Notes under the pieces: generated by a model
Told to the model about the DNA's origin: nothing
Database searches by the model: none
The model's input: the letters and a program-made list of their open reading frames with translations, nothing else
Virus record (IMG/VR): IMGVR_UViG_3300031227_000051
Coordinates: 1 to 56,376 of that record
Reading direction: 5' to 3' (one strand)
DNA from: a virus
Lineage: Duplodnaviria > Caudoviricetes
DNA length: 56,376 nucleotides
Program-made: the position numbers and the translations under genes
Shown: piece by piece, positions 3,070 through 52,105 of the stretch
Numbering within the stretch: the first letter of the stretch is position 1
How the letters are laid out: every line of letters begins with the position of its first letter

Positions 3070-3435
3070 ATGAAAACTAATAAACAAGATTTTGTTGTAG
3101 CGGGAGAGAAAGATGACCAGTTTTATTTTTCGTTTGAGTTTCACGACAAGTATTTAAGTAGATTCTGCATGAGTGACTCAATTCATATACAGCAAGTTCT
3201 ATCAATTCTTATGAGAGATACCAAAATGAATCTACTTGTCAATTCTCTCAAGGATTTTGAAGTTATAGAATGGGATAGAGGGCAAGTCAGAGACGAAAGA
3301 GTCACATTCACCTGCAAGATTTGTGGCGTAAATCCTGTGATACATTGCGGAGTGTGTGTTGACCCAGAAGTCGGCACTGTTGATAAGATAATATTTATGA
3401 AATTTGAGGATGTTATAAATGATAATTTATTCTAA
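3070..3435 (+). CDS. hypothetical protein with CxxC pairs
   Basis: GGAGG RBS. Confidence 0.65.
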   Translation: MKTNKQDFVVAGEKDDQFYFSFEFHDKYLSRFCMSDSIHIQQVLSILMRDTKMNLLVNSLKDFEVIEWDRGQVRDERVTFTCKICGVNPVIHCGVCVDPEVGTVDKIIFMKFEDVINDNLF

Positions 3436-8735: not shown

Positions 8736-8829
8736 GCGAGAATGGCGAAATGGTTACGCATCCCTAAAAGGGGATAGATAGATTATAGACGTATAACTGA
8801 TGCAGGTTCGAATCCTGCTTCTCGCACCA
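8736..8829 (+). ncRNA. aberrant tRNA (Leu-like body, 6-nt anticodon loop, long extra arm)
   Basis: GCGAGAA/TTCTCGC-ACCA, canonical T arm, ATCCC-TAAAAG-GGGAT. Confidence 0.65.
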
Positions 8830-9276: not shown

Positions 9277-9368
9277 AGCATTCATTGGGCACTTAGTTCA
9301 AGACGGTAGAACAATCTCTGATTAGAGATTAAATACGAGTTCGAGTCTCGTAGTGTCCTTTGAATGCT
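9277..9368 (+). ncRNA. tRNA-like RNA (GAT/GATT loop) with an extended acceptor helix
   Basis: GGGCACT/AGTGTCC core 9287-9358; AGCATTCA/TGAATGCT extra helix; no CCA. Confidence 0.65.
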
Positions 9369-28785: not shown

Positions 28786-30102
28786 ATGATAAAAGACAAG
28801 AGTCGTAAATGTTCTTTCTGCGGACGTACCGAAGATGAGGTTGAATTTCTCATAGCGGGAATTGATGGTAATGCTTGTAATGATTGTATCGAGATAATTC
28901 AAACTGTATTTGAGAATATTCAAAAAAGAAAAGATGATGTAGAGAACGGGTTTGAAATTCCTAAACCAAAAGAAATTCACAAATTTTTAGATGAATATGT
29001 AATTGGGCAAGAAAGTGCAAAAAAGACAATATGTGTCGCCGTTTATAATCATTATAAACGAATACTTCAGCAAATCGAAGATGATGACGTTGAAATAGAG
29101 AAAAGTAATATTTTAATGGTAGGACCAACAGGTTCGGGCAAAACATTTATTGCCAAAACATTAGCAAAATTTTTAAAAGTGCCTTTCGCAATTGCCGATG
29201 CTACCACTCTAACAGAAGCAGGATATGTAGGCGATGATGTCGAGAATATTTTAGTTCGTTTACTACAAAATGCAGATTATGATGTAAAGAAAGCAGAGAG
29301 GGGAATTGTATATATTGACGAGATTGATAAAATAGCTCGTACATCCGAAGCTCGCTCTATAACTCGTGACGTTTCAGGGGAAGGTGTTCAGCAAGCTATA
29401 TTAAAGATGTTAGAAGGTGCAAAAGTAAATATACCACCAAAAGGTGGACGAAAACATCCACAACAGGAAATGATTGAAATAGATACGAAAAATATTTTAT
29501 TTATCTCTGGCGGAGCATTTACTGGGTTGAAAACTATAATTAAGGGTCCTGATAAAGAAAAAACTATTGGATTTAATAGTGTACTCAGAGTCGAGAATGA
29601 TTCTACTGATGATGTCGATATGCTCTCAAAATGTACTTCTGATGATTTAGTTAAATATGGACTTATTCCAGAATTGGTGGGTCGCATTCCTATTGTTTCA
29701 TTTTTGGAAGAATTAAATAAAAAGGCATTAATAGAAATACTTACCGAACCTAAGAATGCAATTTGCAAACAATTTAAAAAACTTTTTGAGATGGAAGGGG
29801 TTGAATTAAAATTTAATTCAGCAGCCTTAAACGAAATTGCAGAAATTGCCTCTAATCAAAAAACGGGCGCCCGCAGCTTAAGAGCTATTATGGAAAAATT
29901 TATGCTTGATATAATGTATGATATACCAGATATGAATGCAAAGGAATGTAAGATTACCAAAGGTGTAGTGTCCGGAAAAACAAAACCAAAATATATCTTA
30001 AATGAAGATGAAAAATATGTATGTTCTCAGTCTACGCCGAAGTTGAAGTATGAAATTTCTGAATCCCCGATTGAGTTTGAAATTAAAGTTTGTCAAAAAT
30101 AG
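28786..30102 (+). CDS. clpX: ATP-dependent Clp protease ATP-binding subunit
   Basis: C4 Zn finger, [21 protein letters not shown] loop, IGF loop, GARSL. Confidence 0.97.
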
Positions 30103-30111
30103 GAGATAATT

Positions 30112-30879
30112 ATGTCAACAAACTATACACGAATGATTGAAGAAGAGAAAGAGACTAGTTTTGAAAGGTTTATATTAACTTGTGCAAAAGCTTTTGGTGC
30201 ATGTATTGATATGAGAGATGAACCATTAGACAAAAAAATTCCAATTTTTACTCCAGATAACTACTATACCGAAAAATTAGTAAGGAATATAAAGAGATTA
30301 AAAGAATTTAATTCTTTTACAGAAACTGATTTTAAGAGAATGACTGTCGAAAAATTCAATAACAGAATGAAAATTCACAAAGAATATATTAAAGAGGCAT
30401 TAGAATTAAAAAATAAATATGACAATATGTTAAAAAAAGTTGAAGAATGGACACCGCCTACAGAAGATCATGTTGACTTAAAGCAGTTTATGATTGAACA
30501 AATAAAAATGTCTGTCTCAGCAATTTATGAGTCATCACATTATCCAGTTTTATTAACTGTTAATGAATTTAAATCGAATGAATTAACTAAAATTTCACGT
30601 AATATTAAATATTGCATAGAAGAAAATGAAAAAGAAATTAAAAGAGCAAATGAAAGAAATTTATGGATCAAACAATTACGAGAAAGTTTGCTCCCAACAG
30701 AAAATATCGTAAAATTAGATCGTAGTGATTTGATTAAAGGCAAACACGACACTCCAGTTGAAAAAATCGATATATCTCACTTCAAAAACAAGTCAGTAAA
30801 TTTGCACGATATTATGAGAGCAGATAAGATTTTTTTCATTGACGGTAATATAACAAAAACACTTAAAGATAGGTTTTAA
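30112..30879 (+). CDS. conserved-looking phage hypothetical protein
   Basis: GGAG RBS, 255 aa. Confidence 0.7.
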   Translation: MSTNYTRMIEEEKETSFERFILTCAKAFGACIDMRDEPLDKKIPIFTPDNYYTEKLVRNIKRLKEFNSFTETDFKRMTVEKFNNRMKIHKEYIKEALELKNKYDNMLKKVEEWTPPTEDHVDLKQFMIEQIKMSVSAIYESSHYPVLLTVNEFKSNELTKISRNIKYCIEENEKEIKRANERNLWIKQLRESLLPTENIVKLDRSDLIKGKHDTPVEKIDISHFKNKSVNLHDIMRADKIFFIDGNITKTLKDRF

Positions 30880-46947: not shown

Positions 46948-47388
46948 ATGAGAGAAGAGTTACAAAATAAATTATACGAAAAATGGCCAAAGTTATTGTC
47001 AAATCTTAAAAAAAATAGAAAAGCGAATGGCTCACCATTATCTTGGGATGGAATTGACGTTGGTGATGGTTGGTATGATATTGTTGATACATTATGTAAA
47101 AATATAGTATTATATTCACGTGAATATAATAGATCAAACGTTGATAAGTTTGACTGTAAAGTTCAGCAAATTAAAGAAAAGTTTGGCGGATTAAGATTTT
47201 ACATAGATGGCGGAGACAATCACATTCATGATTTAATTAGTAAGGCAGAAAATACTTCTGAAATAGTCTGTGAATTATGTGGTACATTCGATGATGTCGG
47301 TAAAACAGATGGTTGGATAACTACAATATGTCAAGAGTGTCATAGCAGAATAAATGACAATAGACATTGGAGAAAAATAGGAGATTAA
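46948..47388 (+). CDS. conserved phage protein (QIKEKFGGLRFY family)
   Basis: GDGW, KEKFGGLRFY, CELCG, GWITTIC. Confidence 0.75.
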   Translation: MREELQNKLYEKWPKLLSNLKKNRKANGSPLSWDGIDVGDGWYDIVDTLCKNIVLYSREYNRSNVDKFDCKVQQIKEKFGGLRFYIDGGDNHIHDLISKAENTSEIVCELCGTFDDVGKTDGWITTICQECHSRINDNRHWRKIGD

Positions 47389-47392
47389 TAAA

Positions 47393-47620
47393 ATGATTAT
47401 AGAAAAAGTAGAATCAACAATTATTACAAAATGTTTTAAATGACAAACAGATGATTTTATTGAATGACTCGAAAAAATATCTAAAAGACTAAATATTGAT
47501 ACGACATATTTTATTAAAAAGAAATGGTTTAGTAATCAAATAAGAATTGTAATGATTGGTCTTGATAAAGATGTTGAGAAATTAGAGCATAAAATTAAAG
47601 TTAAATTATTGTATGGGTAA
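47393..47620 (+). CDS. hypothetical protein (2 TGA=Trp)
   Basis: GGAG RBS; 75 aa under code 4. Confidence 0.65.
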
Positions 47621-47715
47621 AAATAGCTTGGCAAGAATTCTAACATAATTAAATTTAGATTTAATGAAAGCATGTTAGAGATACGAAGTGAAAAAGAAAA
47701 ACAAAGGAGATTGTA

Positions 47716-47781
47716 ATGAGATATGGTTAGGTTTATATCCCAGAACGAACTAGGGAAAGAGATCCGCCCCTTATTTTGTAA
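47716..47781 (+). promoter_or_regulatory. leader peptide MRYG*VYIPERTRERDPPLIL with in-frame TAG and RDPP motif
   Basis: AAGGAG RBS; TAG at 47728; hairpin immediately after. Confidence 0.7.
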
Positions 47782-47841
47782 TTGTTTCGATACAGTTACG
47801 AAAAGAAAGAATAACTAAAAAACAAAATAAGGAGATTCAAA

Positions 47842-48186
47842 ATGAATCATGCATATCAGAAAATTAAGGAAGAGTTAAAGACGTTAGGACTAAAGATTAG
47901 AAAGCAGAAATTAGAAAGAAAGGAAATGTGCAGAAAATATCAGGATACTTGGAAAATAGATATGGATATTGTCCATAACAAATTTGAATTTAGACATAAA
48001 CATATTGCTCGTTGTTTACTAAGTGGTCGTAGTTATGAGCAAATTGAACAACCTCGTGAGAGCAGAAAACCTAGTTGGAGAAGCATTAATGAATACAAAA
48101 GGCAATTTATCGAAAAATACGAAGCCTATACCGCAGCACAACTCTCAAAAGCAGAAGCGGAAATTCTAACTGTTTTAGGATACTAA
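47842..48186 (+). CDS. hypothetical protein (RHKHIA..LL.GRSYEQIE)
   Basis: AAGGAG RBS. Confidence 0.8.
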   Translation: MNHAYQKIKEELKTLGLKIRKQKLERKEMCRKYQDTWKIDMDIVHNKFEFRHKHIARCLLSGRSYEQIEQPRESRKPSWRSINEYKRQFIEKYEAYTAAQLSKAEAEILTVLGY

Positions 48187-48196
48187 TATTACACAA

Positions 48197-48228
48197 AAAT
48201 GCCGGGCACTTTGATGTCCGGCATTTAC
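48197..48228 (+). terminator. hairpin between the unknown gene and the pth2-like gene
   Basis: AAATGCCGGGCA..TGTCCGGCATTT. Confidence 0.6.
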
Positions 48229-48253
48229 TTAAAAATACAAAAAAGGAGAGGAT

Positions 48254-48568
48254 ATGCATGAACTAACAATGTATGTAATGGTTCGTAATGATTTACCAAA
48301 ATCATATCAGGCTGTACAAGCTGGACATTCAGTTGCCCAATTTATGCTTGAGCACAATGATACAGCAAAAGCCTGGAACAATCAAAGACTTATCTATTTA
48401 AATGTTGATACCTAGAGTGATATAGATAAAATGATTTATAAGATAAAAAAGTTAAATATTGAATATTCATATTTTAAAGAGTCTGATATTAATAATGAAA
48501 TAACTGCGATAGCAGTTATTGTTGACGAAAGCAAAAGACGCTACTTTAAAAAACTAAGATTAATATAG
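48254..48568 (+). CDS. Pth2-like peptidyl-tRNA hydrolase with in-frame TAG at codon 54
   Basis: MYVMVRNDL..QAVQAGHS..W..LIYL; after TAG 48413: F.ESD...EITAIA..FKKLRLI*. Confidence 0.85.
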
Positions 48569-48578
48569 AATAATCTTT

Positions 48579-48653
48579 CGCAGTATAGTTCAGTGGTAGA
48601 ACAATGAATTCTAAACTCATGTGTCGTAGGTTCGATTCCTACTACTGCGACCA
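48579..48653 (+). tRNA. amber suppressor tRNA (CTA)
   Basis: CGCAGTA/TACTGCG, A73, CCA; ATGAA-TTCTAAA-CTCAT. Confidence 0.9.
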
Positions 48654-48775
48654 TTTTATTTTTGTATAAAAGTATCTTTTTATAAACGATGTTAAAGTTA
48701 TAGAACTCGATATTTATATAAGAATGTCATTGACGAAATAAGGTTACGAAAATAATCAAAAAGGTAGGAACACAA

Positions 48776-49072
48776 ATGAATCAAAATACTTTCGGTTCAA
48801 CAAAGGCCGCAAATGATTTGGTATTACATTTAGAAACAGAGAAGATAGAAAAAAAAACAATTGCAAAAATCAGTCGAAAAATTACAGATTACAATCGAGG
48901 ACTGAATGTTATTAGTAGAATTGAGGATGGCAAAATCAAAGCGTCATTATTAAAACTATGAGCAGAAATGAATTTAAATGCCGTAGATAATATGAATGTT
49001 TCAGAGAATATTATCAGTCATTTAAAAAATGTACAATTAGCATATTTAAAAAGAAAAACTTATAAGAAATAA
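48776..49072 (+). CDS. hypothetical protein (one TGA=Trp)
   Basis: frame continues to TAA 49070. Confidence 0.65.
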
Positions 49073-51070: not shown

Positions 51071-52105
51071 ATGATGAAAACTGGTAAAAAAATTTATTTA
51101 AAACAATTAGCGGCAATATTTAATGATATGCCAGAAGCGGTATACGTAGTTGAACTTTCCAGTTATAAAATTTTATATTTAAACAAATTTCTTTTAAAAG
51201 CACTAAATATTGATGAGTGCAATTATAAGGGAAAGCAATGTTATGAGTTGTTGCAAGGTCTGTTAAAGCCATGCTCATTTTGTACAAACAAATCTTTGGA
51301 CAATCAAACAATTACATGGTCACACAGAAATTGCATTAATAACAATATATATCGTTGTATTGACAGAAAGGTATATATTGGCGATGCAGCAACGCCAGCG
51401 AAATTAGAGATTGCAATTGATATTACTGATGTTATTGGATATCAGGATGAAATTTTAAAAAATCAAAAAACATTAAAGAATAAATTAAAAGAAAAGGAAA
51501 TTTTAATAAAAGAAATACATCATCGTGTAAAAAATAATACTCAATTATTAGTTAGCTTATTACATCTACAAAGTATGAAAACAAGATCAAAGCCAATCAA
51601 AAATGTATTACTTAAAATAATAGAAAGAGTAAAGGCCATTTCTGCAACATATAACTCTTTATACTTAAATGATGATTTGGGTAAGATTAACTTGTCAAAA
51701 CATATTGAAGAAATTATCTCAAGTATTTCATTATCAATACTTGAGCCATATAACATTATAATTGAAAAGAATATTGAAAAAGATATAATAGTGGAAAACA
51801 TAAATAAAGTAACTCCATTAGGCATAATCATAAACGAATTGTTATCCAACTCTGTAAAGCATGCTTTCGTTGAAATTTCAAACAAAGAAACAAAAAATAT
51901 AATAATTAGTTTGACAAAAAATGAGGATACAATTCTACTTACAGTAGAAGATAACGGACTAGGGTTACCACCTGATTACAGTCTAAAACGGCAAATGACA
52001 ATGGGCTCACTTTTAGTTAGTACTTTAGCATCACAATTAGGTGCAAGAATAAAATATAATTCGGAAAACGGTACAAAGGTTACGTTAAGTTTTAAAATAA
52101 AATAG
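51071..52105 (+). CDS. soluble PAS-domain histidine kinase (HisKA_2 type)
   Basis: GKQCY..C.FC PAS; EIHHRVKNN; NELLSNSVKHAF; VEDNGLG; GTKV. Confidence 0.9.
   Translation: MMKTGKKIYLKQLAAIFNDMPEAVYVVELSSYKILYLNKFLLKALNIDECNYKGKQCYELLQGLLKPCSFCTNKSLDNQTITWSHRNCINNNIYRCIDRKVYIGDAATPAKLEIAIDITDVIGYQDEILKNQKTLKNKLKEKEILIKEIHHRVKNNTQLLVSLLHLQSMKTRSKPIKNVLLKIIERVKAISATYNSLYLNDDLGKINLSKHIEEIISSISLSILEPYNIIIEKNIEKDIIVENINKVTPLGIIINELLSNSVKHAFVEISNKETKNIIISLTKNEDTILLTVEDNGLGLPPDYSLKRQMTMGSLLVSTLASQLGARIKYNSENGTKVTLSFKIK

Follow-up and report, generated by a model that had tools for sequence, protein, structure and literature searches.

Natural regulatory leaders sense amino acids, antibiotics, secretion or the level of a release factor. 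Among them are arrest and attenuation leaders such as ErmCL, SecM, TnaC and the RAPP/RGPP type (for instance ApdA and ApdP), XPP and RAPP-type motifs being known to stall ribosomes. The gene for release factor 2 (prfB) is autoregulated through an in-frame UGA near its start, from which ribosomes escape by a +1 frameshift, and thereby senses release factor 2 itself. Here we describe a cassette at positions 47,716 to 48,653 of IMG/VR virus record IMGVR_UViG_3300031227_000051 (Caudoviricetes; 56,376 nucleotides (nt), the whole of which we call the window). On the plus strand it comprises, in order, a short leader open reading frame (ORF) with an early in-frame TAG, termed the gate, and a later Pro-Pro motif; a gene for a protein of 114 amino acids (aa); a hairpin; a gene for a Pth2-like peptidyl-tRNA hydrolase with a second in-frame TAG at codon 54; and an amber suppressor tRNA, tRNA(CUA) (Table 1). 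We lean towards reading this cassette as a translational attenuator that senses stop-codon suppression and sets the output of the Pth2-like hydrolase. The class of mechanism is known; what seems to be new is the signal it senses, together with the conserved cassette itself.

The cassette shares with arrest leaders a short upstream ORF, a proline-rich pause site and a paused ribosome predicted to open the next Shine-Dalgarno (SD) sequence, but its input would be read-through of an early in-frame stop rather than a drug, a secretion defect or an amino acid, and its stalling is presumed. With prfB it has in common an early in-frame stop that would gauge termination efficiency and set the amount of a protein; in the cassette, by contrast, a dedicated suppressor tRNA would provide the escape, and a hydrolase-like protein is the product. 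Man-made counterparts are leader-peptide switches into which an amber codon has been engineered (Liu, Qi, Yanofsky and Arkin, 2011, as summarised in PMC6412442). In the accessible part of that summary, a TAG in the leader likewise makes downstream expression depend on a suppressor tRNA, and these constructs use the tna and trp leaders and act via transcription termination, whereas the cassette is natural and phage-encoded, has a predicted SD hairpin and lies beside its own suppressor tRNA and a hydrolase gene. In the full-text literature (subscription journals not covered) we found engineered versions only, with no natural amber-gated leader and no link between Pth2 and suppressors.

Several large phages carry parts of the same system. 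Recoded phages (Lak, crAss-like) also encode a tRNA(CUA), and near the Pth2-like gene of Lak phages lie a suppressor and a gated leader; in the available accounts of recoded phages TAG is spread through late genes, whereas in the window and two larger relatives such use of TAG is limited to the cassette. A term search of the Borges preprint (10.1101/2021.08.26.457843) returned none of the words hydrolase, leader and Pth, and one of PMC13037316 did not return hydrolase. PTH2 of jumbo phages, which is of the same family as the window's protein and comes from phages of the same kind, has been proposed to act in rescuing jammed ribosomes (Iyer et al., 2021; PMC7824862). The word suppressor is absent from that article, and in its accessible part the PTH2 account mentions no link to suppressor tRNAs and no in-frame stops. 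Xanthomonas phage XacN1 likewise has CUA tRNAs (two) without being recoded; according to the accessible part of PMC5852040, extensions after its 18 amber stops were sought and no target was found. In contrast to that targetless account, its fused HD and Pth2-like gene begins ATG AAG TAG and is a candidate target. Phage Atu_ph07 is described, in the portion of its report available, as having a UCA suppressor and Pth genes (PMC6102473).

Conservation of the gated cassette in large phages

We collected 81 distinct Pth2-like genes from IMG/VR and GenBank phages by alignment-based scans, a degenerate-pattern scan and tblastn. Most of these loci (numbered with the prefix L) lie on contigs of 80-550 kb, and they include Lak megaphages, the huge phages LR7565xx, XacN1 and Stenotrophomonas phages CM1 and RAS14. 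In L001, whose protein is 45% identical to that of the window, the order of leader, 114-aa homologue, Pth2-like gene and tRNA(CUA) is the same. The sequence-only reading had called for a survey of homologous loci for internal TAGs that co-occur with a CUA tRNA. Within the stretch examined around each locus, 62 of the 81 have a suppressor tRNA on the same strand (56 CUA, 5 UUA and 1 UCA), which starts no more than 45 nt 3' of the Pth2-like gene in 21 loci; many of the 19 loci that have none are short or reach the contig end.

Gates were found automatically in 54 of the 81 loci, in four classes: N-terminal (21), at the start of an HD-domain fusion (4), as an internal TAG (8) and in a leader (28). 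An N-terminal gate is a start followed by 1-5 codons and a TAG directly before the conserved core (TAG at codons 2-6), and among 1138 control frames from these loci only 18 have such a start (Fisher p 3e-16). By eye, a further 19 of the 27 loci left unclassified proved to be gated, four have less than about 500 nt of upstream sequence and four are ungated. The gates found in this way include GTG-start leaders ending K-P-P-stop (L008, L010 and L155) and a long leader with a second TAG followed by ARGPP (L055). A different arrangement was seen in L053, L071, L107 and L086, where a normal gene lies upstream and its TAG stop serves as the gate, with a short read-through stretch, a second TAG and RGPP behind it; in three of these four the upstream gene ends E-W-T/D-D-D/E.

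The leaders follow one design. In all ten loci first found with a 114-aa gene, a mini-ORF consists of an SD, a start, 1-5 codons, TAG, a few codons, Pro-Pro and a stop, often with a second TAG between gate and Pro-Pro; examples are MT-TAG-VRNVLKPP-stop, MS-TAG-VYNKPP-stop, MFK-TAG-IKVPP-TAG-VRGPP-TAG and ML-TAG-SNFKPP-TAG-VFKPP-stop. A strict search for this pattern recovered leaders in 22 loci and relaxed criteria in 28. The strict pattern has 28 hits in the 109 kb that precede Pth2-like genes (0.257 per kb) against four in the remaining 1.37 Mb, both strands included (0.0029 per kb), bearing out the suspicion that two in-frame TAGs beside the window's tRNA(CUA) are unlikely to be chance. Its distance to the Pth2 core is also constrained, the leader ending 333-456 nt 5' of the core in 21 loci and 787 nt in L122. 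K-P-P is the commonest pause motif, with RGPP (L017, L018, L079, L087 and L055), RSPP and RDPP also present. The Pro-Pro pair is spelled CCT CCA, CCT CCT, CCA CCA, CCA CCC, CCG CCA or CCG CCC, and such synonymous changes between loci point to selection on what the ribosome reads. The putative role of the leader as a read-through sensor, proposed from the window by itself, is thus supported by gated Pro-Pro mini-ORFs across loci.

The leader of the window reads ATG AGA TAT GGT TAG GTT up to the gate and GAT CCG CCC CTT ATT TTG TAA at its end. It has its own SD, as the sequence-only reading had claimed in describing a strong ribosome-binding site, and ends 60 nt before the next gene start. Its closest analogue is the leader of L079, MT-TAG-VYSERGPPVFVYRELI-stop.

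In other loci the gate lies inside the hydrolase gene itself, as in MK-TAG-INNHK-LIIITRED, MT-TAG-ITKQP, MCL-TAG-VKEGDK-LYVITR and MTH-TAG-VETPY-LYCFVRKD, and no other start is found between the TAG and the conserved core. Internal TAGs occur at differing positions in the window, L002, L020, L070, L080, L147, L151, L138 and L042. The HD-domain and Pth2-like fusions of XacN1 and CM1 start MK-TAG-T (ATG AAG TAG; L046 2440-2460 and L045 2455). In XacN1 this first ATG has an SD before it and the later ATG from which ORF364 is annotated has none, suggesting that the fusion gene is a candidate target of the XacN1 CUA tRNAs; in CM1 there is no ATG in the stretch read 3' of the TAG.

The identity of the gate codon follows that of the suppressor. 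CUA is accompanied by TAG throughout; the Lak phages pair UUA with TAA, and L159, the sole tRNA(UCA) locus, has a TGA gate in a leader that reads ATG AAA CGT ATA TGA ACA CGT AAC AAA GGT CCA. The Lak-C1 leader (ATG AAA CTT CAA TTT TGG TAA GTT ACA, later AGG GGT TCA CCT) and the Lak-B6 leader (ATG GAA CTT CAA CAT TGG TAA GTT ACA, later CGT GGA CCT TAA) keep Arg (AGG or CGT) and Gly (GGT or GGA) through synonymous changes. The base 3' of the gate is also distinctive, being a purine in 40 of 44 distinct TAG gates and never T, against 54 purines and 36 T among 110 ordinary TAG stops of the same loci (p 5e-7). In Escherichia coli, amber suppression is favoured where the next base is a purine and termination where it is U. 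Dependence of the hydrolase on a suppressor, deduced earlier from codon 54 of the window, therefore appears to be a trait of the family, to judge from gates in or before the Pth2-like gene of most relatives and a gate codon that tracks the anticodon.

These patterns bear on a different role for the mini-ORFs, as counterparts of the bar minigenes of phage lambda, which are connected to Pth. Very short peptides held at a stop codon would drop off as peptidyl-tRNA and tie up host tRNAs, the Pth2-like enzyme would recycle them and the suppressor would be secondary. The placement of gates 2-6 codons after the start would suit this role, as would a peptidyl-tRNA-hydrolase-like gene as constant partner. 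It leaves unexplained the conserved frame after the gate, whether Pro-Pro with synonymous changes or the body of the hydrolase, as well as the tracking of anticodon by gate codon, the 3' base that favours suppression under the E. coli context rule, and internal TAGs such as codon 54, and we regard it as unlikely.

Three further observations were made around these cassettes. In L041 (GenBank LR756500) a second mini-ORF, MK-TAG-IKITIRGPTYLF-stop (3331-3378), stands directly after the Pth2-like gene and before another gene, suggesting that the gate design may control further genes in some phages. L017 (1813-2139) and L018 (2114-2445) each have a transfer-messenger RNA (tmRNA) gene some 2 kb 5' of the cassette, a clustering of ribosome-rescue and read-through functions. 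About 900 nt 3' of the Pth2-like gene of L018 there is a sequence like the L017 tRNA(CUA), not called by ARAGORN, which may be a degenerate or interrupted suppressor.

A predicted RNA switch at the leader

The region from leader to downstream start was folded for 15 distinct leaders, with 108 other SD-bearing genes of the same loci as controls. The SD of the downstream gene has a median unpaired probability of 0.01 after leaders and 0.59 in the controls (Mann-Whitney p 1.9e-5), and is at or below 0.1 in 10 of the 15. With a ribosome modelled at the gate the median stays at 0.01; with a ribosome at the last Pro-Pro it rises to 0.68. Three leaders had initially been cut at an earlier PP-TAG, and with the full leader their SD opens to 0.42-0.66. 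For the window, the fold of 47700-47860 has a z score of -3.05 (1 of 200 shuffles folds equally well), and the unpaired probability of the SD goes from 0.27 in the free RNA to 0.31 when a ribosome sits at the gate and to 0.77 when it sits at Pro-Pro. An alternative RNA structure is thus predicted to hide the downstream SD until a paused ribosome opens it. The earlier proposal that the leader controls the downstream gene gains support from these models, in which a ribosome at Pro-Pro, not one at the gate, opens the closed SD.

The partner of the SD is a pyrimidine-rich segment at or just 3' of the leader end. The upstream element might instead act as RNA only, as an SD-sequestering hairpin or a processing site whose ATG, TAG and CCN-CCN are not meaningfully translated. 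Predicted sequestration in most loci fits such an element, as does the use of CCTCC as the anti-SD in L016 and L048. In L021, L024 and L087, on the other hand, the anti-SD lies 3' of the leader stop, outside the Pro codons, and the first Pro codon varies (CCT, CCA or CCG) without matching changes in the SD. Neither the SD and start (ATG or GTG) at a fixed frame distance from the TAG nor the covariation of gate codon and anticodon would be expected of an untranslated element, and we consider an RNA-only role quite improbable.

TAG as a stop codon outside the cassette

Suppressor tRNAs are a hallmark of recoded phages (PMC13037316; Borges preprint 10.1101/2021.08.26.457843, in their accessible parts), and the same Pth2-like gene is found in Lak phages, which abstracts describe as alternatively coded. 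Like Lak and crAss-like phages, the phage of the window might accordingly take TAG as a sense codon in some or all of its genome, making the two TAGs of the cassette ordinary codons; the window is a contig fragment, and the genes seen in it are of early or tRNA-related types. Within the window, 95 non-overlapping long plus-strand ORFs end in TAA (69), TAG (14) or TGA (12), those ending in TAG including ClpX and a histidine-kinase-like gene, the domains of both being complete; the gene that comes next to ClpX matches, from residue 1 onwards, a PHROG family of its own. The gain in ORF coverage with TAG read as sense is smaller than that with TGA read as sense, and of all TAG-joined frames only the Pth2-like gene has homology on both sides. 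In two related contigs of 174 kb (G001) and 80 kb (G005) the TAG gain is below the TGA control on three of four strands and slightly above it on the plus strand of the 80-kb contig, and all eight large TAG-joined frames tested there are two adjacent separate genes. Neither relative shows recoding, and a search for other gated genes within the window gave nothing convincing. Recoding also sits poorly with gates at codons 2-6 or in mini-ORFs far above chance and with their special following base, as it does with XacN1, which is reported to have only 18 amber stops, no read-through products having been found (accessible part of PMC5852040), and yet has an MK-TAG start. We therefore think recoding improbable, and the view that TAG is an ordinary stop elsewhere, with suppression confined to the cassette, holds for the window and for the two related contigs; the late genes of this phage lie outside the contig.

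Among the TAG-joined frames, ClpX (438 aa) ends in TAG and is followed 9 nt on, in the same frame, by a 255-aa gene (PHROG 8905; 28786-30879). An active suppressor would yield some ClpX fusion protein; the shared frame may be chance, adjacent ORFs standing in the same frame across a TAA in six other places of the window. At 75-548 an 84-aa ORF ending in TAG is followed by an in-frame 70-aa ORF with its own ATG, and no family spans the junction. Candidates for gated genes in G001 were set aside, being the leader of the cassette itself, a translated tRNA or starts that lacked support. On loci of 8 kb, the comparison of genetic codes by ORF coverage was not discriminating and was replaced by domain tests on TAG-joined frames.

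The split Pth2-like gene and its suppressor tRNA

With X at the TAG, the translated gene matches Pfam PTH2 (PF01981) at 29.6 bits (cut-off 23, E 8.8e-7) over protein residues 5-103 and profile positions 2-114 of 115. The match spans both sides of codon 54, so the homology continues past the TAG as had been perceived by eye, and both halves retain residues that are invariant in the family. In relatives the residue aligned with codon 54 is E (7), L (4), A, S or Y. In addition to this internal gate the gene has its own SD. A profile of 16 family members matches solved archaeal Pth2 structures (2zv3, E 2.2e-7), with 24bt, 1rlk, 1rzw/3erj and 1xty also hit and, weakly, human Bit1 (1q7s, E 0.24). 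The phage family retains the Q-x-x-H-A and T-A-I-A elements, and its invariant Glu (E76) falls under the Asp of D-A-G in the HMMER alignment, while two residues (G-K) of the G-K-G-K loop are deleted and the Lys column is not conserved. We take the catalytic residues of Pth2 to be the Lys of that loop and the Asp of D-A-G. The phage protein is a Pth2 family member by fold and profile, and its hydrolase activity is putative.

The tRNA(CUA), whose place 10 nt past the Pth2-like stop ARAGORN confirmed, is the sole CUA tRNA among the 35 tRNAs of the window. It has a complete cloverleaf (Rfam model positions 1-71 of 71) with a 7-bp acceptor stem, a short variable loop, discriminator A and an encoded CCA, and given the 10-nt spacing it is probably cut from the same transcript as the Pth2-like gene. 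That it is charged and works at UAG gains indirect support from the in-frame TAGs retained in neighbouring genes throughout the family. The window tRNAs most like it (Gly, Met and Arg) are just 60-67% alike. Among 59 distinct suppressors of the family the discriminator is A in 31, G in 15, U in 12 and C in 1. The anticodon stem (48604-48620) ends in an A31-C39 mismatch beside the loop UUCUAAA, and some other suppressors with the UUCUAAAC sequence (e.g. L016 and L068) are likewise mismatched at that stem end.

It could be objected that the Pth2-like gene of the window is a decaying pseudogene, or that the TAGs are assembly errors, since the codon-54 TAG is specific to this phage. Every claimed feature lies where the sequence-only reading had put it, and contigs of three other runs carry identical letters: none differs over 47600-47969 and 48109-48700 in run X2, over 47752-48700 in X3 or over 48390-48700 in X4. 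These contigs include the leader TAG (X2) and the codon-54 TAG (X2, X3 and X4), so neither is a sequencing or assembly error. Decay fits poorly with the family-invariant residues in both halves, and eight other members have internal TAGs elsewhere with no other stop type or frameshift in the translations checked; the leader TAG, moreover, is conserved family-wide. The objection does draw on an exact break at 48413, which hints at a variant: contigs of run X5 stop at 48412 and resume at 48414, and one X4 contig has its end at 48413. The codon-54 TAG begins with this base, and the pattern suggests that TAG and a sense codon may coexist in the population. Overall we hold decay or error to be very improbable.

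Proposed mechanism and its implications

Under the attenuator reading, ribosomes would start on the leader at its strong SD and, at codon 5, release factor 1 would compete with the phage tRNA(CUA) for a TAG followed by a purine. After termination the ribosome would be gone about 40 nt before the anti-SD, the hairpin of 47769-47775 and 47826-47832 would stay closed and the 114-aa gene would be poorly translated. After read-through the ribosome would slow at R-D-P-P, its footprint covering the anti-SD and freeing the SD, a logic of classical translational attenuation with suppression as the input. Codon 54 would be a second gate, full-length Pth2-like protein again needing the suppressor, presumably in charged form and probably cut from the same transcript. 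The hydrolase might (a) clear peptidyl-tRNA arising from stop read-through or short-peptide drop-off, or (b) deacylate the suppressor, a negative feedback holding suppression at a set level; we favour the two about equally. Of the feedback switch first envisaged for the cassette, the gating of the hydrolase by the suppressor finds support in the family, and feedback is just one possible logic.

Several points weigh against this reading. The leader of the window is off consensus, with L-I-L between Pro-Pro and the stop, and four loci (L047, L139, L112 and L135) have no gate despite enough upstream sequence. The modelled sequestration of the window SD is just moderate (unpaired probability 0.23-0.27), five of the 15 leaders have values of 0.23-0.68, the footprint was modelled by blocking bases under an assumed ribosome window, and Pro-Pro conservation could partly be RNA-level because CCTCC doubles as anti-SD in two loci. 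A single operon is not assured, since a hairpin separates the 114-aa and Pth2-like genes in the window, unlike in most relatives, where the two overlap; over 47300-48900 promoter-like sites are no commoner than in shuffles and no plus-strand terminator was called. The phage family is without the Lys-rich loop of the solved Pth2 enzymes. The 59 suppressor sequences are too diverse to name one amino acid, the codon-54 column giving a weak hint, and, with late genes absent from the contig, these could be recoded.

More tentatively, and with considerable doubt, the family could represent a three-part controller of large phages, made up of a suppressor tRNA, an anticodon-matched early-stop sensor (often with a Pro-Pro arrest site) and a gated Pth2-like esterase that deacylates the suppressor or its peptidyl form. 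If so, an infecting phage would keep stop read-through at a fixed level or control its timing; there would be an explanation for the orphan suppressor tRNAs in XacN1 and other jumbo phages that are not recoded; and the controller could be a stepping stone to full TAG reassignment as in Lak phages. The attenuator itself, if real, would supply the first concrete target for suppressor tRNAs in non-recoded phages and tie widespread phage PTH2-like genes to stop-codon read-through. Research on termination, on pausing of the elongation factor P (EF-P) type and on code evolution would gain dozens of natural switches that depend on amber and differ in their arrest motifs, and synthetic biology would gain compact parts. 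Such genes would be missed by phage annotation, the XacN1 homologue being annotated from a later ATG and the two halves of the window gene appearing as two small ORFs.

Features of the locus and its surroundings

Table 1. Positions of the cassette features in the window
Feature	Position	Strand	Basis and remarks
SD AAAGGAG of the leader	47703..47709	+	read directly; 6 nt 5' of ATG; SD-like sequences also before the leaders of relatives
Leader ORF, MRYG-TAG-VYIPERTRERDPPLIL-TAA	47716..47781	+	ATG at 47716, TAA at 47779-47781
Gate TAG, leader codon 5, next base G	47728..47730	+	read directly; same in X2 contig
Pro-Pro codons CCG CCC inside R-D-P-P, proposed pause site	47764..47769	+	read directly; Pro-Pro kept across leaders
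Anti-SD CCTTATT (codons P-L-I-L)	47769..47775	+	predicted pairing with 47826-47832; minimum free energy and centroid folds of 47700-47860
AATAAGG (47826-47832), predicted to pair with the anti-SD; overlaps SD AAGGAG (47829-47834) of the 114-aa gene	47826..47834	+	folding
114-aa all-helical protein, motif (Y/F)-x-(F/Y)-R-H-x-H-I-A-Y-C and I-E	47842..48186	+	ORF
12-bp hairpin between the 114-aa and Pth2-like genes	48197..48226	+	folding
Pth2-like hydrolase gene, 104 codons, stop TAG at 48566-48568	48254..48568	+	Pfam PTH2; PHROG 1866 and 3668
In-frame TAG, codon 54	48413..48415	+	translation, alignment; in X2, X3 and X4 contigs
Amber suppressor tRNA, anticodon CUA (48611-48613)	48579..48653	+	ARAGORN; Rfam tRNA 67.1 bits

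Homologues of the 114-aa protein sit between leader and Pth2-like gene in 19 loci. In most relatives the last 17-20 nt or so of this gene lie within the beginning of the Pth2-like gene, an overlap that would couple translation of the two there. The AlphaFold model has three long helices (predicted local distance difference test (pLDDT) score 93.8), and the protein has no Pfam family, no fold match in the PDB at E <= 0.001 (Foldseek) and no tblastn match among GenBank phages. The best PDB rows from Foldseek (E ~1), generic helical bundles or the coiled-coil arm of seryl-tRNA synthetase, were dismissed, and Atlas neighbours scored 0.87 or below, which is chance level and uninformative. The 96-nt stretch with the intergenic hairpin folds at -22.4 kcal/mol (z -4.68; 0 of 200 shuffles as stable), and no T run follows the hairpin on its 3' side, which is why the terminator scan did not call it. 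In Rfam, at E <= 1 over 47400-48800, only the tRNA reached the threshold and no known cis-regulatory family did so.

The window, a fragment that makes up the entire assembly, is about 30% G+C with genes on the plus strand only, and 16 kb of it gave no match of near identity among GenBank phages. Its tRNA set and gene content have a clear phage character, other genes with family matches being RNA ligase, a tRNA-His guanylyltransferase-like protein, NAD-dependent DNA ligase, a NAMPT-like protein and ClpX. The histidine-kinase-like gene (51071-52105; PAS, HisKA_2 and HATPase_c) is unusual phage cargo. ARAGORN called a tRNA with a four-base anticodon (gatt) at 9287-9359 and a 94-nt tRNA-like gene, to which it assigned no anticodon, at 8736-8829; these may be a frameshift-suppressor-like tRNA, an intron-bearing tRNA or artefacts.

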